Part shown: piece by piece, positions 12,036 through 22,256 of the stretch
Numbering within the stretch: position 1 is the stretch's first letter
Layout of the letters: every line of letters begins with the position of its first letter
NCBI GenBank assembly: GCA_048886185.1
Contig: JBHLKY010000001.1
Location: 30,001-62,000, forward strand
Source of the DNA: Candidatus Hermodarchaeota archaeon
Lineage (GTDB): Archaea; Asgardarchaeota; Heimdallarchaeia; Hodarchaeales; Hodarchaeaceae
Direction of reading: 5' to 3'
DNA: 32,000 bases
Notes under the pieces: model-generated
What the model was told of the DNA's origin: nothing
Databases searched by the model: none
What the model saw: only the letters and a program-made list of their open reading frames with translations
Program-made: the position numbers and the translations under genes

Positions 12036-12794
12036 TTGGTTACTAATTTAGAGAATGTTGATGTGAAAAATGAAGTATCGAATAATCAAAAAATAATTGG
12101 CTTTGTCAGGTTAGCTAGACCTCAATTTCTCTTGGCTTATTTAATTGTTGGTACAGGTGGATTGGTCGTCGGAGCTCAACAAGGATTTGATGTTGATTTA
12201 TTTGTCGCTATTTATTCTATTATGGTTGTCCTTATTTCAGCAATTGGTGTTCATTATCGGGATGAAGCAGGGGACTGGGCTGCTGGTTATGATCATGAAT
12301 ATGGTGGAATGGGGGTCATTAGAGAAGGTACAATCAGTGAAAATACCGTTCGACTCTTAGGTCGGATCATTAGTTTTATCACAATAATACTGGGAATAAT
12401 CCAGGCATTTTACCTTTTTTTATCAAAGAACCAACCAATCTTACTTATTATAGGTGTGCCAATTTTTTTTATGATAGTCTTCGTTAATTACTTAACAGAA
12501 GAGATCCCTCTTGGCCACGAGATTATTACAGCAGGTTCTTATTTCGCAACTTTTTATTGGATATACTTAGCTCAAACGTGGAACGTCACAACATCCATGG
12601 TTTTCTTCTCAATTTTCGTTTACCTAATTGTATTCGCTCTCATCCCATATCAAGACATTGGAGATGTGAAAGTAGATACAAAAACTGGCAAAAAAACATT
12701 GACTCGAAAATTAGGAATAGATGGGGTCGGTCAATTATCAATCTTTATAGGATTAATCTCAATTGTATTCTTATATCTCGCATTATTAGCTTAA
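12036..12794 (+). CDS. UbiA-family prenyltransferase (MenA-like)
   Basis: RLARP, Asp-rich motifs HYRDEAGD and QDIGDVKVD..GKKTL, multiple TM helices; GGTGA RBS. Confidence 0.8.
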   Translation: MVTNLENVDVKNEVSNNQKIIGFVRLARPQFLLAYLIVGTGGLVVGAQQGFDVDLFVAIYSIMVVLISAIGVHYRDEAGDWAAGYDHEYGGMGVIREGTISENTVRLLGRIISFITIILGIIQAFYLFLSKNQPILLIIGVPIFFMIVFVNYLTEEIPLGHEIITAGSYFATFYWIYLAQTWNVTTSMVFFSIFVYLIVFALIPYQDIGDVKVDTKTGKKTLTRKLGIDGVGQLSIFIGLISIVFLYLALLA

Positions 12795-12838: not shown

Positions 12839-13420
12839 ATGATAAAAAATAATACAAAATATGAAATCTGTCGTGTGTGTGGATATGTTCGACCAGTGGG
12901 AAAAGGAGGAAGATGCCCAGCTTGTGGTGTCAGAGACACTGCCTTTGTCCCTTTTCAACATAAAGCCTCCCTTAGAAGGCGTATGTTTCTGAAACTGGAC
13001 GTGCATCCTGTTGCAGTCCACTTTACAATTACTTACACAGCTGTAACAGCTTTCTTCTTCTTTTTCTTATTGTTTAGTGATAATTTACTTGGAGTTCCTA
13101 TCCAAGGTATCTTAGATCTTCAAATCACCTTCCTTCCTTTATTGATTACATCTGGCGGAATAACTGGACTTATCGATGGCAAGGTAAGATTCCGGAAAAT
13201 CAAAACTCCTTTTCTTTTGAGGAAAATTGTACTGGGGTGTACTCTCCTAGTGACTTCTATATTTCTATTACTAATACATATCATTAATCAAAGTGATACT
13301 TCTTTTCTATTAATTGAAGCTTGTTTAATATTACTAACTTTTATTCTTGCAAGTTATCTTGGATGGATTGGTGCAGAATTGATTTGTCCAATTGTTCCAA
13401 TAGGAAAAATTGAATCTTGA
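12839..13420 (+). CDS. Rubredoxin-like domain fused to a DUF2231-like 4-TM membrane domain
   Basis: CRVCGY...CPACG, then HPVAVHF, GGITGLIDG and GWIGAEL with four hydrophobic segments. Confidence 0.75.
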   Translation: MIKNNTKYEICRVCGYVRPVGKGGRCPACGVRDTAFVPFQHKASLRRRMFLKLDVHPVAVHFTITYTAVTAFFFFFLLFSDNLLGVPIQGILDLQITFLPLLITSGGITGLIDGKVRFRKIKTPFLLRKIVLGCTLLVTSIFLLLIHIINQSDTSFLLIEACLILLTFILASYLGWIGAELICPIVPIGKIES

Positions 13421-14902: not shown

Positions 14903-15241
14903 TTAATGGCCTATGTGAAGCAAGGTCCCGATTAGCGGAATAAGTACAACTGGAAGGGCTATCAATAGCGGAACACCGAAAACAACACCATAAATCAATT
15001 TTGATCTAGTTTGATATTTGATTCCCATGAAAAAAGCCGCAACCAGATAAGCCTTTGCCAACGCAAGCACAATCAATCCAATACGAATTAGAAATTGCAA
15101 ATCAGTTTGACCAAGTACGTTTTCACTACTAATGCTGAGAGTAACCTCAAGAATTGTGAAGAATCCAAGCAATAATACAATGTAGTTATATGGGCGTTTC
15201 TCTTCATCAAACTTTTGTACTTCTTCTTGTTTATCTGCCAT
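14903..15241 (-). CDS. Heme-copper oxidase subunit IV (COX4_pro-like)
   Basis: Three TM helices, TILEV and LAKAYLVAAFFM motif; 10 bp downstream of subunit I. Confidence 0.8.
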   Translation of the reverse strand: MADKQEEVQKFDEEKRPYNYIVLLLGFFTILEVTLSISSENVLGQTDLQFLIRIGLIVLALAKAYLVAAFFMGIKYQTRSKLIYGVVFGVPLLIALPVVLIPLIGTLLHIGH

Positions 15242-15251
15242 TAAAAAAACC

Positions 15252-16805
15252 TCAAGATCCTTCTGATATTGTATTCGAATCTTTTTCAGATATCATAAGT
15301 CCGAATGGATCTTCTTTGGCTGGTTCTTTTCGTATAAACAAGCTAAAGAAAATATTAAATAGAAATACAGTAACAGAGAATGCCATTAACAGTGCTCCGA
15401 TAGTAGCAATCATGTGCCAAAACGCGTATAAATCTACAATGAGGAAAGTGGAATAATCAAAATACCGTCGTGGCATACCAAGTAATCCAACGATCATCAT
15501 TGCAAAGAAAGTAACAATAACCCCAATAATCCATGAAAAACAATGAATCCAAGCTAGAGTGCGCTGATACATCTTTCCAGTCATTTCAGGAAAGAAATTA
15601 TAGAAACTGCCTAAGATTGCTGTTACCGCTCCACCAATGATTATAAGATGAAAATGACCTACTACGAAGTATGTATCGTGGACTACAATATCAATTGGAA
15701 TGATGTTAAGCCACACCCCAGTAATTCCACCAATAACAAAGCCTATAATAAAACCTAAGGGGAACACAAGAGGTACCTCAAACTTAATACGACCTCCCCA
15801 CATTGTTAATAACCAGTTGAATGTCTTAATTCCTGAAGGTACAGCAATTATAAAAGTTAAAAAGTTAAAGAAAGCGGTTGTAATAGCATCAGATGAGGCG
15901 CCATATATTGTGTATTGATGATGGCCCCATACAAAGAACCCTAGAACTGTTATCATTATCATAGAAGCAACCATGGATTTGTAACCAAATATTTCATTAC
16001 GAGAGAATTTAGCCACCAATAGGGACATCAATCCAAAGGCAGGGAGTATCATGATATAAACAGCGGGGTGAGAGTAGCTCCAGAACACATGTTGCCACAG
16101 AAAAGCCCCTGCTCCAGATCCGAGAGCTGAATAAAAAGTTGTGCCAAGTATCCTATCAGATAATAGAAAAGTGAGACCTGTGGTAATTAGGGGGATCGCT
16201 AAAAATTGCATGATTGCTGCTAAAAGGATGGACCAACTAAAAAGATCAAGGTCTAGCCACTGAAGTCCTTCCCGTCTCATAGTAGCTATGGTAATGATAA
16301 AGTTTATTGAAGACACAAGAGAGGAAATACCAGCTATTAAGACACCCACAATCCAAGTATTTACACCAATGCCAAATCCTTCTAAAGAAAGAGGTGTGTA
16401 AAGCGTCCACCCGACTGAGGTCTCACCTAAATAAAGTAAGAAACTAGCAGGTAATAACATCCAGAATGCACCATTATTCCACCGGGGCCAGTACATATCC
16501 TTTGCGCCAATGAGTGTTGGTACAAGAAAATTACCAAAACCAACCCCTAGAGGAAAAATAACAAGGAAGATCATTGTTGTTCCATGAGCAGTAAATATAA
16601 TGGAATACATCTCTTCATTAACAATTGTAGGACCAGGAAAAGCGAGCTCTATGCGGATTATAAGGGCCAATAACCCTGATATGACGAAATTTATTAAGGA
16701 AAAGGCAATGTAAAGCTTTCCGATGTCTTTGTGGTTGGTTGTTCCAAAAAATCGTATAATTCTTTTGGTCAAGGAATCTTTGGATACAGCTAAGGTTTCA
16801 GACAT
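15252..16805 (-). CDS. coxA: Heme-copper oxygen reductase subunit I, A2 type
   Basis: NHKDIG (D-channel Asp), TAHG, FWSYSHPAVY (His-Tyr with YS motif), WGHH, SGIK (K-channel Lys), HDTYFVVGHFH, GMPRRY; GGTGA RBS favours start at 16805. Confidence 0.96.
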   Translation of the reverse strand: MSETLAVSKDSLTKRIIRFFGTTNHKDIGKLYIAFSLINFVISGLLALIIRIELAFPGPTIVNEEMYSIIFTAHGTTMIFLVIFPLGVGFGNFLVPTLIGAKDMYWPRWNNGAFWMLLPASFLLYLGETSVGWTLYTPLSLEGFGIGVNTWIVGVLIAGISSLVSSINFIITIATMRREGLQWLDLDLFSWSILLAAIMQFLAIPLITTGLTFLLSDRILGTTFYSALGSGAGAFLWQHVFWSYSHPAVYIMILPAFGLMSLLVAKFSRNEIFGYKSMVASMIMITVLGFFVWGHHQYTIYGASSDAITTAFFNFLTFIIAVPSGIKTFNWLLTMWGGRIKFEVPLVFPLGFIIGFVIGGITGVWLNIIPIDIVVHDTYFVVGHFHLIIIGGAVTAILGSFYNFFPEMTGKMYQRTLAWIHCFSWIIGVIVTFFAMMIVGLLGMPRRYFDYSTFLIVDLYAFWHMIATIGALLMAFSVTVFLFNIFFSLFIRKEPAKEDPFGLMISEKDSNTISEGS

Positions 16806-16816
16806 ATTTTTCACCA

Positions 16817-17464
16817 TCATGTTACTATGATCTTTGCTTTCATTGAATAATGTCCAAAGCCACAATATTCAGCGCAATGAACTTCATATACCCCTGGGTT
16901 AGGAATTTGAACATAAATGATATTATGCCTCCCTGGGATCATATCTAATTTTATGGAGAGTTCATGAACAAAGAAACTGTGAATCACATCAATTGAAGTA
17001 ATATTAAACTTGTAAAGCTTATCAACCTCCAGATATAGCACACCTATTGTACTAGTTCCGTCTTCTCTTACGAATGTAAAATTATATTTGTACGCTATGA
17101 CTAATATTTGCTCATCATAGTCTGGATATTCTGTAAGATAACTTTGAGTAACTGGAAGACTGGATAGGAAAAGAATGCTTACAATTACAGATGCAAAAAT
17201 TATCCAAATAACTTCCACACGTAATTGATTTTGTATCTTTTTTCGAGGGGTTTTAGATGACTCCCTAAACCGAAACACGATATAACCTAATAGAATAAAA
17301 ACAATAACTGCAATTAAAAGAGAAAAAAATAAAACTATAGCCAGGAGATATTGAACTTGCGGTGTATAAACAGCATTTTGAGGAGTAGCAGAAATTTGAA
17401 CAGGATTTGTTAAAATTATTAAAGAAAAGATGGCCAAAAACAAGAATTTTATCAGTTTTTTCAT
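16817..17464 (-). CDS. coxB: Heme-copper oxidase subunit II with a CuA site
   Basis: Leader plus two TM helices; DVIHSF and CAEYCGFGHYSM give the complete CuA ligand set; no fused CxxCH domain. Confidence 0.95.
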   Translation of the reverse strand: MKKLIKFLFLAIFSLIILTNPVQISATPQNAVYTPQVQYLLAIVLFFSLLIAVIVFILLGYIVFRFRESSKTPRKKIQNQLRVEVIWIIFASVIVSILFLSSLPVTQSYLTEYPDYDEQILVIAYKYNFTFVREDGTSTIGVLYLEVDKLYKFNITSIDVIHSFFVHELSIKLDMIPGRHNIIYVQIPNPGVYEVHCAEYCGFGHYSMKAKIIVT

Positions 17465-17483: not shown

Positions 17484-18917
17484 TTAAATCAAATACACTA
17501 ACGTAAAGAGAATGATCCAGACTAAATCTACAAAATGCCAATAAATTCCTACAAGTTCAACACCTGTATGGTTTTCTTGAGAAAATCCACCTTGGTATGC
17601 TCTTAAAGTCATGAAGAGTACGAGAAGAACACCGAAAAAGACATGTGCTCCATGAAGACCTGTTTGGATATAAAATGTTGAGCTAAATAGATTGAGATCT
17701 GGAGTGAATCCCTCATGGAATAACGAAAAGTACTCTATTACTTGAATACTTAGAAATATTGATCCAAAAAGGAAAGTGAGGAAAAGAAAGTTACTTAATC
17801 TTTTTTGATTTCCATTTTGTATTCCCTCAACAGCTTTCACTAGGGTGAAACTGCTTACTATTAGAATAAACGTGTTGATGGCCGTTAATGGGACATTTAG
17901 TATAGATCCTGGGACGGGCCAATCTTCACTAGCAATTCGGAAAGCAAAACTTGTCCCAATAACCATTGTGAAAATGATAACTTCTGAAGCCAAAAATAAC
18001 CATATCCAAGATCCTTTTGTTTTAAATAAGTTTTGAGAATATGTTTCTTTGAAAATAAATGATATGAGCAGTATAAAGAACACCCAAAGGAATGCAAATC
18101 CAGCAAAAACTTCTTTTTGAGCAATTAACAATATTCCCCATGCTAATAATCCAGTGCTGATTGCCAGTACTGGTGGCCAAAGAGTTATTTCATGCTCATC
18201 TTGATCTTCAGTTTCAACTTCTAATCTCAAAGGTTTTCTTAAGAATCCACCCATCACAGTTAATATCAGTATTATAACCGAAGCTAATACTATTACTGAG
18301 AATAAATCTCCTGTACCTTGAGGGAGAAGCATGGCTAAGATAGGTACATCAGTGACTAAAGTACCCCCATACACAAGAATAGCTCCCGCGCCTGCAACAA
18401 TTGTGAATATTAAATATCCTATGGCTTGACTAGAAATATATACTAGTTGAAACAGAATGTTTTGGTCATATATCCTTTCATGACGATAGTTTACAAAATA
18501 AATTCTGAATATACCTGCATAGATAAAGAAAGAAGTTCCATAAATTGCGTATATGACTTTAAAAGATAGAATTTCGCTTCGACTTGCTGCATCAATACCA
18601 AGCCATATGGTTTCAAGACTAATATGGGCGAGACCTATATTTCCAGAAGCATCTAAAATACCCGCAGCCATTGCTACGAATAAACTCAATAATCCAGAAG
18701 TTAAACACACAAATGCAACAAACTCAAACTTGTCTGAATAGATTTTTAGAGTCTGTAGATCAACAGAAATTTTACGTTGAGATTCACGAGATAAAGTTCT
18801 TTTTAAGAAATCAGATTTGATGAGCATTGATAAACTAAATGCAATAAGGTTGGTAAGAAGACTAAAAGCAAGAAGAGCTACATGAAAATGAAGGACAATA
18901 GGGTGAAGTTCTGCCAT
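17484..18917 (-). CDS. coxC: Heme-copper oxidase subunit III with an approximately 240-aa N-terminal DUF2231-like membrane extension
   Basis: C-terminal part has WLFLASE, NTFILIVSS, TGLHGAHV and YWHFVDLVW; N-terminal part has HPIVLHF, AAGILDA and GAGAILVY. Confidence 0.88.
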   Translation of the reverse strand: MAELHPIVLHFHVALLAFSLLTNLIAFSLSMLIKSDFLKRTLSRESQRKISVDLQTLKIYSDKFEFVAFVCLTSGLLSLFVAMAAGILDASGNIGLAHISLETIWLGIDAASRSEILSFKVIYAIYGTSFFIYAGIFRIYFVNYRHERIYDQNILFQLVYISSQAIGYLIFTIVAGAGAILVYGGTLVTDVPILAMLLPQGTGDLFSVIVLASVIILILTVMGGFLRKPLRLEVETEDQDEHEITLWPPVLAISTGLLAWGILLIAQKEVFAGFAFLWVFFILLISFIFKETYSQNLFKTKGSWIWLFLASEVIIFTMVIGTSFAFRIASEDWPVPGSILNVPLTAINTFILIVSSFTLVKAVEGIQNGNQKRLSNFLFLTFLFGSIFLSIQVIEYFSLFHEGFTPDLNLFSSTFYIQTGLHGAHVFFGVLLVLFMTLRAYQGGFSQENHTGVELVGIYWHFVDLVWIILFTLVYLI

Positions 18918-18922
18918 TATTC

Positions 18923-19699
18923 TTATTCTCCTTCCAACAACGGTTTATTTTCTGCTTTTTGGTGTCTTCGCCCAAAACTGTCTACAAAAATCATTAATCC
19001 TATAAGACTAAACGAAAGAGAAATTCCAAGAATCATTGGGGAAAGAAAGTCAGCGCGATAAGTGTTAATTCCAGTAAGAAAGAATTCAAATGATCCTCTT
19101 TCAATATGAGATGAAGTAAAATCATCAGATGATCCTAGGGCCCACAACATTTTCACTTTTCCTGAAGTAGGAATAGATTTATCATATTCATCACCTGTTG
19201 TTAACAGCCTCTTGAACTCAAAGGTTGTAATCTCATTTAATTCTGTCCCGTTGAAGTCCACGATATCATTAGTTCCTCCAAGATCCAAATCTGGAGGATG
19301 AGGTCCAAACTGACCAATTGAAAACGTATCCATGGCAAAAACACCAGTACTGTTCACCCACCCGAATATCATATCAGCATCCTGCATAGCAAACGTCGGG
19401 CCTATACCAATTGCCACCCATCCTACAGTTTTGGCACGTATAGCAATATAAATATCACTATCATTTACTTCCCAAAATAAAGAATAGTCCTCTGAAATTT
19501 GATGGGAATAAATATATTCTTCATCTGAAATGACTCCATCTAATTTGTTTTCTTCTCCTTGAGTATGTTTTCCAACTACTCCCATTGTTAAAAAGAAAGC
19601 AGTCAATAATAAAACAAGCATAAAAGGATTTATGGATTTCACTAGGGCGGTTCCAGACCACTTAAGTAGTATTTTAGATGAAGATACTTTCAAACCCAT
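18923..19699 (-). CDS. Membrane-anchored DOMON-domain protein (putative heme b, Met/His)
   Basis: LFW, GWVAIG, AMQDADM, FKRLLTTGD..D, LWALG and SSHIERG; hydrophobic N- and C-terminal segments; 5-bp gap to coxC. Confidence 0.82.
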   Translation of the reverse strand: MGLKVSSSKILLKWSGTALVKSINPFMLVLLLTAFFLTMGVVGKHTQGEENKLDGVISDEEYIYSHQISEDYSLFWEVNDSDIYIAIRAKTVGWVAIGIGPTFAMQDADMIFGWVNSTGVFAMDTFSIGQFGPHPPDLDLGGTNDIVDFNGTELNEITTFEFKRLLTTGDEYDKSIPTSGKVKMLWALGSSDDFTSSHIERGSFEFFLTGINTYRADFLSPMILGISLSFSLIGLMIFVDSFGRRHQKAENKPLLEGE

Positions 19700-19722
19700 T
19701 ATTACTTCCCACAATTGAAATC

Positions 19723-19733
19723 TTAATTATAAA
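19723..19733 (-). promoter_or_regulatory. Archaeal TATA-like box upstream of the DOMON-cox operon
   Basis: Minus strand reads TTTATAATTAA, with the TTTATA hexamer ending 29 nt upstream of the ATG at 19699. Confidence 0.4.
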
Positions 19734-19836: not shown

Positions 19837-20907
19837 TTAGTAAATTTCTTGACCAGCTTCCTCTATTTTCCCACTAAATAGTTTATAGACAAATGCTGTA
19901 TAGACTAAGACTAGAGGGAGCGCTATTAAGGCAATTACAAGCATTATAAATAATCCAAGAACTGATGCTGAAGTGTTATGGATAGTAAGACTATAACTAG
20001 CGTTTATTGATGAGAATACGAGATTTGGATAAACTGCTACACCTGCTCCAAAGATACTGAGAGCAATTGAAATAGCTGACAAGATAAAAGTGCGAATTGG
20101 GTCAGCATCAGTCCACACATGCCACAAAGTACCAAGTATTGCTAAAAATCCGAGTATTGGAATCATTAAAAGAAGAGGGTTTGCTAAGAAATTGTCAAGA
20201 ATGTGATCATGTAATAAAATACTAATAACCAAGGAACTACTTGAACAAGCAAGGAATGTTATTATTCCTACTTTGGCCCATTGGGTAGTTTTTTTCTGAA
20301 GTCTTCCAGTTGTCCTTACGCGGAGATAGATAGCACCATGAGTAATGATTATTGTTAGAGATAACAGTCCAATTAAGAGGGCATATGGGTTGACCAAAGA
20401 GAGTAATTCGCCAGTAAAGGTTTTATTTCCATCAATAGGGATGCCTTGTACTAAATTTCCAACTACAACACCAAAAGATAATGCAGGAACCAAACTTCCG
20501 ATGACAAATGCAATATCGGTGATTTTATGCCATAGAGATGAATCAAATTCCTCATGGAATTCAATAGATGTTGCGCGCAAGATTAAGCAAAGGACAACCA
20601 AAATCAATGGGAGATAGAATGCGCTAAAAACGGTAGCGTAGACATCAGGAAATGCAGCAAACAGAATTCCTCCAGCAGCTATCAACCAGACCTCATTCCC
20701 ATCCCAAAACGGCGCAATGGTCTGTAAGAGTATTTTCCTGTCATTTCTTGTGATCTTTTCGTCTCTTTCTCGTGTAAAAAAGAACCAAAATCCTACTCCT
20801 AGGTCAAATCCATCTAGGATCACATATATGATTACAATGATTGCTAAGACAATAAACCAAATATCCTGCAGTAAAGATATTTCAATTAGTCCTTGATGAA
20901 GACTCAA
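19837..20907 (-). CDS. cydB: Cytochrome bd quinol oxidase subunit II
   Basis: LDGFDLGVG, PFWDGNEVWL, LRATSIEFH; TTG start overlaps the cydA stop. Confidence 0.95.
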   Translation of the reverse strand: MSLHQGLIEISLLQDIWFIVLAIIVIIYVILDGFDLGVGFWFFFTRERDEKITRNDRKILLQTIAPFWDGNEVWLIAAGGILFAAFPDVYATVFSAFYLPLILVVLCLILRATSIEFHEEFDSSLWHKITDIAFVIGSLVPALSFGVVVGNLVQGIPIDGNKTFTGELLSLVNPYALLIGLLSLTIIITHGAIYLRVRTTGRLQKKTTQWAKVGIITFLACSSSSLVISILLHDHILDNFLANPLLLMIPILGFLAILGTLWHVWTDADPIRTFILSAISIALSIFGAGVAVYPNLVFSSINASYSLTIHNTSASVLGLFIMLVIALIALPLVLVYTAFVYKLFSGKIEEAGQEIY

Positions 20908-22256
20908 TTGTGTACCTCCAGGCCAATTGGTCCTTTTCGAATTATCCGTATCATTATTAGAATCCAGATTACAGTGAGAATGATATATGTCGTTAAAAAG
21001 AGAATCAATGACATTAGAACTTGGTCTGCTGGGACGACAGTTGACACTCCATCAGCGGTTCTCATGACACCTTGCACTATCCACGGTTGGCGGCCTACTT
21101 CTGTGGTTACCCAACCCAGTTCATTAGCCAGTATTGGAAGTGGAAGACAGAGAGTAGCTAATCGAAGATACCATTTTCTGTAAATCCAATTATTGTCAAA
21201 TAATTTCTTTCTCCAGAGAAGTATTACCCCAAAGACGGAGACAAATATGAGAATTCCACCTAAAATCACCATACCATGAAAAGAATAAAAAGTAAGCATG
21301 ATTGGAGGTGTATCAGGGGATAAATCATTTAATCCAATTACTGTGGCATTCGGGTTCCCGAGAAGTATGCTTAGAAGAGGAAAGTCTAAAAGTCCAAAAA
21401 TTGAAGAATCGATTTGGAAGAGAATTCCTGTTTCATCAAGGATAGCAAAAATAATTAGTGGAACACCGCTTTCTGTCTCAAAAATTCCTTCTTGAGCAGC
21501 AAACTTCGCTGGTTGATATTCAGCAACCATGGTTGAGTTCCAGTGGCCAAGGACAATCTGAAACAGAGATAGAATAACGCCAACCATAAGAGCGATCTTT
21601 ATTGAGTCCTGAGCAACTTGAGTATGCCTATTCTTCAACAAATAATATGCGCTCACTCCTATTATGAAAAAAGATCCCGTCAGTAGACAAGCATTGATTG
21701 TATGAAAGAAACGAGGAAATGTTGATGGAGTAATTACAGCTTGCCAAAAATCAGTTAATACTGCTCTGCCTCCTTCTATTGCAAATCCTCTAGGTGTATG
21801 CATCCAAGAACCAGCGCTCAGAATCCAGAATGCAGACATAACTGAACCAATTGCCACCATAAGAGAGGAGAACCACAGCACTTTATCAGAGATTCGCTCA
21901 CTTTTCCATCCCTGAAGCATAATCCCTAGGAAAACTGATTCAAGAAAGAAAGCGAAAAACACTTCTAATGTCAACATACTACCAAACACGCCGCCTACAA
22001 AGCGTGCAAACTCACTCCAATTGGTTCCAAAGCTAAATTCCATTACAATACCCGTAGGGATTCCAATTGCTACTGTAGTAGCCAATAATTTTACCCAGAA
22101 CCATGAAAGATCCTTATAGTAAGTATTTTTAGTTTTCATATATTTAGTCATAAAATAAACTATAAACCATGCTAAACCTATTGTGATCGGGGGGAAAATA
22201 AAGTGATACCCGATAGTCAACCAGAATTGGATTTTTGCAAGCGATAGTGCATCCAT
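20904..22256 (-). CDS. cydA: Cytochrome bd quinol oxidase subunit I (short Q-loop)
   Basis: YHFIFPP (heme b595 His), EFSFGTNW, EVFFAFFLES, RFFH, QPAKFAAQEG, HGM, GWVTTEVGRQPW. Confidence 0.96.
   Translation of the reverse strand: MDALSLAKIQFWLTIGYHFIFPPITIGLAWFIVYFMTKYMKTKNTYYKDLSWFWVKLLATTVAIGIPTGIVMEFSFGTNWSEFARFVGGVFGSMLTLEVFFAFFLESVFLGIMLQGWKSERISDKVLWFSSLMVAIGSVMSAFWILSAGSWMHTPRGFAIEGGRAVLTDFWQAVITPSTFPRFFHTINACLLTGSFFIIGVSAYYLLKNRHTQVAQDSIKIALMVGVILSLFQIVLGHWNSTMVAEYQPAKFAAQEGIFETESGVPLIIFAILDETGILFQIDSSIFGLLDFPLLSILLGNPNATVIGLNDLSPDTPPIMLTFYSFHGMVILGGILIFVSVFGVILLWRKKLFDNNWIYRKWYLRLATLCLPLPILANELGWVTTEVGRQPWIVQGVMRTADGVSTVVPADQVLMSLILFLTTYIILTVIWILIMIRIIRKGPIGLEVHN

Follow-up and report, generated by a model that had tools for sequence, protein, structure and literature searches.

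To our knowledge, the electron donor of every CuA oxidase characterised so far is a cytochrome c, a cupredoxin or a HiPIP. DOMON-type haem b domains are known from other enzymes. The cytochrome domains of fungal cellobiose dehydrogenase (CDH) and pyranose dehydrogenase (PDH) are extracytoplasmic one-electron shuttles to a copper enzyme (LPMO), and EbdC and NxrC, the haem-b gamma subunits of periplasmic molybdoenzymes, are the electron entry or exit modules of respiratory enzymes outside the membrane. The eukaryotic CYBDOM proteins (Arabidopsis CRR/HYP1, animal SDR2) combine an outward DOMON domain with a helical membrane redox partner, and they are ferric reductases (PMC10784552).

A DOMON gene beside an Asgard oxidase was already noted in a 2024 preprint (Appler et al., bioRxiv 10.1101/2024.07.04.601786). 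Its passage on the Complex IV of Hodarchaeales/Kariarchaeaceae gives one sentence to the same operon type, lists SCO1 and CoxD-like neighbours alongside DOMON and draws cytochrome c as the carrier; ligands, topology, partner domain and donor absence are not analysed in that passage. Besides this preprint, our literature search found no paper linking DOMON with Asgard archaea.

The window, which means the whole 32,000-nucleotide stretch analysed here (G000:C1:30001-62000), belongs to an assembly of 4.84 Mb in 75 contigs that is 96% complete. In it a DOMON gene opens the operon of a CuA oxidase, and its ligands, fold and linkage, together with the absence of other recognisable donors, make its product the best candidate for the electron donor of this oxidase, with the transfer itself being predicted.

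The DOMON gene and its predicted product

The minus strand of the window carries, in this order, cydA, cydB, the DOMON ORF, CoxIII, CoxII, CoxI and CoxIV (Table 1). The gap after the DOMON ORF is 5 bp and that after CoxIII is 19 bp; an alternative TTG start of the DOMON ORF lies at 19714. The cydAB pair directly 5' of DOMON on the same strand was also found in one relative (G056) and was absent from this place in the other relatives checked. On the plus strand, 2 kb from the oxidase operon, the ORF at 12036-12794 matched the UbiA prenyltransferase family with 29.1 bits, short of the Pfam cut-off of 34.2, and it may encode a haem O synthase. The plus-strand ORF at 12839-13420 encodes a protein of 193 aa that has a CxxC...CxxC site at its N-terminus, followed by HPVAVHF and a GWIGAEL-type membrane domain; no Pfam match was obtained for it at E 0.01.

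Table 1 Features of the oxidase operon and its surroundings (positions are those of the window)
Feature	Position	Strand	Remarks
cydA	20904-22256	-	bd-type quinol oxidase; upstream of DOMON gene
cydB	19837-20907	-	bd-type quinol oxidase; 137-bp gap before DOMON ORF
TATA-like box TTTATAAT	19726..19733	-	read from sequence; ~30 nt 5' of ATG, inside the 137-bp gap
DOMON protein gene	18923..19699	-	258-aa ORF from ATG; first in oxidase operon
N-terminal hydrophobic segment, residues ~24-44	19568..19630	-	from hydropathy; preceded by four Lys
DOMON beta-sandwich domain, residues 50-215	19055..19552	-	net charge -19; three N-x-S/T sequons
Met105 codon	19385..19387	-	AMQDAD motif (19373-19390); candidate axial haem ligand
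His134 codon	19298..19300	-	GPHPPD motif (19289-19306); nearly invariant
His198 codon	19106..19108	-	SSHIER(G) motif (19097-19114); candidate axial haem ligand; starts C-terminal strand 198-207
C-terminal transmembrane helix, residues ~221-241 (...LIFVDSFGRR)	18977..19039	-	from hydropathy; basic tail after
CoxIII, 477 aa including N-terminal extension	17484-18917	-	one ORF
DUF2231-like membrane domain (EXT), residues 1-240 of CoxIII	18198..18917	-	from profile and model
Canonical subunit III part of the 477-aa ORF	17484..18197	-	PF00510, E 1.7e-23
Subunit II (CoxII)	16817..17464	-	complete CuA site; no CxxCH
Subunit I (CoxI)	15252..16865	-	PF00115, E 1.4e-134
Subunit IV (CoxIV)	14903..15241	-	PF03626, E 1.7e-7

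The preliminary description had called the gene product a DOMON protein that retains a Met/His pair of haem ligands, and both statements held up. The Pfam DOMON model (PF03351) matched residues 70-189 over profile positions 3-124 of 124 with 94.5 bits (cut-off 32.7, E 7e-27), and the motifs AMQDAD, GPHPPD and SSHIERG are at the places that had been quoted. The model of the CDH cytochrome domain (PF16010) gave a weak match of 18.5 bits, under its cut-off of 27 (E 0.0018), and EB_dh did not appear among the matches listed up to E 10. Homologues of the protein carry the names Hodarchaeales, Hodarchaeota or Heimdallarchaeota. An alignment of 24 homologues with identity down to 33%, which includes bacterial lipoproteins and cytochrome b561 fusions, had Met105 and His198 invariant and His134 nearly so, and all three residues were invariant in eight further bacterial sequences. 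Both candidate ligands were kept in 8/8 oxidase-linked copies from loci fetched from related genomes, and one or both were missing in several unlinked paralogues (L047, L048, L057 and the paralogue of the same genome at C17:106343, whose neighbourhood was uninformative), so retention of the ligands is informative rather than universal.

The AlphaFold2 model of the protein had a pLDDT of 82.6 overall and above 90 over residues 50-210. The top structural match was the haem-free DBH DOMON domain (4ZEL_B, Z 14.8), followed by the haem-b subunit EbdC (2IVF_C, Z 14.0), the cytochrome b domain of PDH (6JT6, Z 13.6), the CDH cytochrome domains (Z 13.0-13.3; 1D7B_A 13.2), NxrC (7B04_C, Z 13.2) and, with Z 9-10, CBM9 modules; rmsd against 4ZEL_B and 1D7B_A was 2.6-2.8. 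Sequence searches of the PDB with the DOMON profile and with the domain alone returned nothing relevant. The spacing between Met105 and His198 is 93 residues, and that between Met89 and His180 of Arabidopsis CRR, which its authors superimposed on CDH 1D7B, is 91 (PMC10784552). In the alignment with 1D7B, residues 57-211 of the model pair with residues 8-176 of the chain (model 211 = chain 176), so His198 would face His163 of 1D7B if the last 13 residues are ungapped, which is alignment arithmetic and not a residue-level superposition. Because of this spacing, the fold matches (1D7B, 6JT6, 2IVF_C) and the arithmetic anchored at the end of 1D7B, we equate Met105 and His198 with the known ligands. 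The protein has no cysteine, hence no CxxCH haem-attachment motif, which means that any haem would be non-covalent. PF03188 (cytochrome b561) was unmatched in the protein and there is a single C-terminal helix, so it is not a CYBDOM fusion. Sequence and model thus support the assignment of the 258-aa protein as a haem-b-type DOMON in which both ligands are present and haem binding is predicted.

Hydrophobic segments at both termini had also been described, and both were found; the claim that they anchor the protein at both ends was supported for the C-terminal one only. The C-terminal helix (219-250) was modelled with a pLDDT of 83-93, and its sequence is conserved among oxidase-linked orthologues. 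The N-terminal segment varies between homologues and is shorter in the orthologues; small residues follow it, its pLDDT is low, and bacterial homologues have a lipobox at its position. The segment is probably a cleavable Sec signal peptide, and possibly a signal anchor, so a type-I membrane protein with a single C-terminal anchor is at least as likely as double anchoring. The four lysines before the N-terminal segment and the basic C-terminal tail fit an N-in/C-in arrangement with the domain outside. Two sequons (N116-S-T and N150-G-T) are conserved among archaeal orthologues, and bacterial orthologues do not conserve them. From these basic ends, the archaeal sequons and the bacterial lipobox, the DOMON domain is predicted to lie outside the membrane, on the same side as the CuA domain.

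Gene linkage and the DUF2231-like partner domain

Across the 83 genomes of the class that were compared, DOMON relatives and COX1 were each confined to families f1, f2, f5 and f6, and f3, f4 and f7 had neither. The order DOMON, EXT::CoxIII (477-485 aa), CoxII, CoxI, CoxIV was found in five genomes (G000, G048, G049, G053 and G054), all with the 5-bp gap after DOMON. It is partly kept in G056 and G063, which makes seven genomes in all, and in G064 and G067 it breaks at contig ends. Canonical operons (G061, G062, families f2 and f6) are arranged CoxII-CoxI-CoxIII-CoxIV, with a CoxIII of 282-316 aa and no adjoining DOMON. These genome comparisons cover few and closely related MAGs. In the single contig of G056 (L038, G056:C1:592000-610000), cydAB, DOMON, EXT::CoxIII and CoxII are followed by neither CoxI nor CoxIV, and COX1 was not found anywhere in this genome, which is 70% complete; this may represent operon decay or rearrangement.

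In two sister families, DOMON and EXT also occur together away from the fused form. In G033 (f5), DOMON is directly followed by a stand-alone EXT, two ORFs and then CoxII-CoxI-CoxIII, with the DOMON-EXT pair 3 kb from cox, and in G069 (f2) DOMON and the stand-alone EXT directly after it form a pair away from cox. DOMON paralogues were also present in genomes without COX1, such as G058. Such paralogues and the pair in G069 indicate that the module is not intrinsically an oxidase part.

EXT precedes the canonical CoxIII start EHEITLWP. Its model is a four-helix bundle with a fifth helix (pLDDT 72). Glu3, His5, His10, Asp89, Ser91, Lys120, Arg138, Tyr140, Asp190 and Asp204 are invariant in 19 EXT orthologues and His12 is nearly invariant; across the wider EXT family the invariant residues are His5, His10, Phe11, Gly86, Ala90, Lys120 and Gly178. 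Helix counting from the CoxIII topology and the positive-inside rule would put the conserved polar cluster at the outer face. The DUF2231 model (PF09990) matched 5/19 orthologues, with a best E of 1.4e-5, and a stand-alone EXT relative matched it with 23.6 bits (E 6e-5) over profile positions 3-135 of 139. By these profile matches EXT is probably a divergent DUF2231 domain; the EXT::CoxIII of the window itself scores 14.6 bits (E 0.036), below the gathering score of 26.4. The literature on DUF2231 is close to nonexistent.

The EXT family is rare: a set of 1.8 billion proteins contained 21 representative clusters of it. Fold searches with EXT gave generic four-helix bundles only (Z at most 11.8) and no Foldseek match below E 0.18, and a search of the ESM Atlas gave no informative result. 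In four other Asgard MAGs, the stand-alone EXT genes had no DOMON or cox gene within 8 kb and uninformative neighbours. The 193-aa protein with the HPVAVHF motif was considered as an EXT homologue and rejected, since hhalign against the EXT profile aligned the 16-residue HP..HF motif only, with a probability of 1.3%.

The conserved DOMON-EXT gene pair and the fusion of EXT to CoxIII are good evidence for a joint function of DOMON and EXT, which in this genus is exerted on the oxidase. The DUF2231-like domain fused to CoxIII is the obligatory partner of the DOMON protein, and it was missing from the preliminary description.

Electron carriers and the role of the DOMON protein

The CuA ligand set of CoxII is complete (His162, Cys197, Glu199, Cys201, His205 and Met208). 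Pfam model searches of the same genome (96% complete) returned no match to Cytochrom_C (PF00034), Cytochrome_CBB3 (PF13442), Rieske (PF00355), Copper-bind (PF00127) or Cytochrome_B (PF00033), and the sole Cupredoxin_1 match was CoxII itself. All of these carrier, Rieske and cytochrome b searches gave matches in control genomes; the absence of carriers is an absence from Pfam models, which a divergent carrier could escape. Within the order, matches to cupredoxins or class-I cytochromes c were obtained in 3/4 canonical-operon genomes (G062, G069 and G070) and in 0/9 DOMON-operon genomes, a difference that is no more than suggestive in view of the few and closely related MAGs. We came across no bc-type complex in the genus. 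We had considered small Rieske proteins as complex III markers of the canonical-operon genomes that would be absent from the DOMON-operon genomes, and rejected this: the 116-aa protein of G062 (L079:6252-6602) is a Rieske ferredoxin within a SUF Fe-S assembly operon, the 332-aa protein of G048 (L080:1487-2485) is a VanA-like oxygenase, and all examined Rieske matches in the order are non-respiratory.

QWYW is the classical cytochrome-c donor-entry motif of CoxII, and the strand matching it, compared between the window (16817-17464) and L058-L073, has Tyr-x-Phe (AYKYNFTF) in 7/7 DOMON operons vs Phe-x-Trp in 9/9 canonical Asgard operons. Electrostatic complementarity between DOMON and the soluble domain of CoxII was looked for and not found, because both are acidic (-19 and -5), which is a point against the donor role.

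The preliminary description had also pointed out that a b-type carrier needs no c-type maturation system. This is true of any b cytochrome and sets no constraint here, since the genome encodes CcmA, B, C, E and F (C1:7400-12500) and two hexahaem cytochromes. One of these, of 548 aa with c7/MtrC-like Pfam matches, adjoins the Ccm cluster on the same contig, 30 kb from the DOMON operon; it has an N-terminal hydrophobic segment, many N-x-S/T sequons, a C-terminal helix and a basic tail. The second hexahaem ORF is accompanied by a second CcmF-like gene on C54 (C54:415-5200). A missing c-maturation system is therefore not the reason for a b-type carrier. The Ccm and hexahaem region (G000:C1:7400-16700) lies about 13-22 kb before the window.

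Relatives of the DOMON protein outside the archaeal oxidase operons have other redox partners. Bacterial homologues at 40-46% identity, which share the Met/His/GPHPPD signature, had an Oxidored_molyb (sulfite-oxidase family) gene directly downstream in 31/80 metagenomic loci (L090-L169, e.g. L091:4843-5841 and L160:4474-6570). Some of the lipoprotein-type homologues are part of a fusion with a PQQ dehydrogenase, an arrangement also seen in the fungal enzyme 6JT6. Genes for ferritin-like proteins, SOD, DJ-1/PfpI and Cu-ATPase recur near these bacterial loci, and no cox or EXT genes were found in them; the loci have the look of a periplasmic module for redox or oxidative-stress functions that has yet to be studied. 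Fusions to cytochrome b561 (P0014, P0017, P0020 and P0025) or DUF4079 occur in other relatives. A quick maximum-likelihood tree covering 39 domains placed the oxidase-linked DOMONs in one clade (SH-aLRT 96), nested among copies associated with b561, DUF4079 or EXT and separate from the paralogues. The associations with Mo, PQQ and b561 partners indicate that the clade has repeatedly served as redox partner of extracytoplasmic or membrane oxidoreductases.

On balance we favour, by a modest degree of belief, a DOMON haem b that is the immediate donor to CuA and is held by the C-terminal helix beside EXT::CoxIII. In the mechanism that we propose, the exported b-type cytochrome would sit at the outer membrane face on this helix and bind one non-covalent haem through Met105 and His198. 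Together with EXT, which in this genus is fused to the N-terminus of CoxIII, it would form an electron-input module, and its haem would pass single electrons to the CuA of CoxII, so that its role would equal that of the membrane-anchored cytochrome c or cupredoxin elsewhere. If this is true, a DOMON-type b cytochrome feeding CuA would be a new donor class with an unprecedented role, and it would fill a gap in the proposed aerobic chain of Hodarchaeales, for which Complex IV is annotated and no complex III or carrier was found in the genus. Arguments on how the archaeal ancestor of eukaryotes used oxygen draw on this chain.

Quinol could supply the electrons, through its oxidation at a conserved His/Lys/Asp site on the predicted outer face of EXT. 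Only tentatively do we suggest the full version, in which DOMON and EXT would turn the A-type, CuA-bearing oxidase into a self-contained quinol:O2 oxidoreductase with a path from quinol at His5/His10/Lys120/Asp89 through haem b to CuA. The b haems of CDH, AIR12 and EbdC have potentials of about +100 to +250 mV, and a value in this range would fit between menaquinol and CuA. If true, such an oxidase would replace complex III and the mobile carrier, in the closest archaeal relatives of eukaryotes, and we know of no organism in which a CuA oxidase with DOMON-based quinol input has been described as a respiratory design.

It is unlikely that the DOMON protein is instead an accessory or assembly factor, for haem or copper delivery or for protection of the outer face, outside the catalytic electron path. 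Oxidase operons often carry assembly genes, the passage of the preprint (2024.07.04.601786) places SCO1 and CoxD-like neighbours with DOMON, and the bacterial homologues lie among oxidative-stress genes (ferritin-like, SOD, DJ-1, Cu-ATPase), but a conserved Met/His pair marks the electron-transfer DOMONs, attachment to redox enzymes recurs within the same clade, and no other donor was detectable in this genome by the searches above.

We also think it quite unlikely that DOMON and EXT form an outward CYBDOM-like reductase for Fe(III) or another external substrate that is merely co-transcribed with the oxidase or docked on it. This would suit the DOMON-EXT pair away from cox in G069, the b561- and DUF4079-DOMON fusions that are the nearest neighbours in the tree, and the ferric reductase activity of CYBDOM proteins. 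However, all genus members with the DOMON operon have EXT covalently joined to CoxIII, the invariant polar residues of EXT are at the predicted outer face only, with no second His pair for transmembrane transfer, and the oxidase would remain without a donor.

A still smaller chance, in our judgement, attaches to the surface-anchored hexahaem c cytochromes being the real CuA donors, with the DOMON protein at most an intermediate or part of another process. The two ORFs adjoin Ccm genes, one of them on the contig of the oxidase, and they share the N- and C-terminal hydrophobic architecture of the DOMON protein. Against this, they are not in the oxidase operon, and their Pfam matches are to c7/MtrC-like cytochromes, which are known for low-potential extracellular transfer. 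Finally, it is highly improbable that the DOMON domain carries no haem and binds a sugar or other ligand like CBM9 or the DBH DOMON: the latter is its top structural match, but haem-binding domains reach scores equal to that of DBH and clearly above those of CBM9, and both ligands are invariant here though ligand-less paralogues occur in the same lineage.

Comparison with known systems

If the DOMON protein is the donor to CuA, it resembles the cytochrome domains of the fungal dehydrogenases. The cytochrome domains of CDH and PDH (1D7B, 4QI3 and 6JT6) have the same beta-sandwich (Z 13.0-13.6, rmsd 2.7-2.9 over 146-154 residues) and a Met/His pair at similar spacing, and the proposed acceptor CuA would take the place of the copper enzyme that they serve. 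The domain layout of PDH recurs in a bacterial PQQ-DOMON fusion from the clade of the Asgard DOMON. In contrast to CDH and PDH, to which its identity is 12-15%, the Asgard DOMON is a separate membrane-tethered polypeptide without fusion to a dehydrogenase, and its proposed acceptor is a respiratory oxidase.

The CYBDOM proteins resemble the Asgard module in the DOMON domain, which in the Asgard protein is outward by prediction, the Met/His pair and the helical membrane partner, and prokaryotic b561-DOMON fusions are 35-46% identical to the Asgard DOMON. The partner differs, because it is a DUF2231-like bundle on another polypeptide rather than b561 and lacks the two His pairs, and the proposed electron flow is into the oxidase and not out to Fe(III). 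A prokaryotic module of DOMON and membrane partner can be set beside the eukaryotic CYBDOM architecture.

EbdC (2IVF_C) and NxrC (7B04_C) have a related fold (Z 14.0 and 13.2), and the place where they act, as modules through which a respiratory enzyme takes up or releases electrons outside the membrane, is like that proposed for the Asgard DOMON. Their haem ligation is Met/Lys, and unlike the Asgard DOMON they are soluble subunits of Mo enzymes. The membrane-anchored cytochromes c and cupredoxins (such as Bacillus c550/c551 and the archaeal halocyanin and sulfocyanin) have the same job as the one proposed here, at the outer face beside CuA, but they are unrelated in fold and cofactor, and the Asgard DOMON has no CxxCH, no Cys and no copper site.
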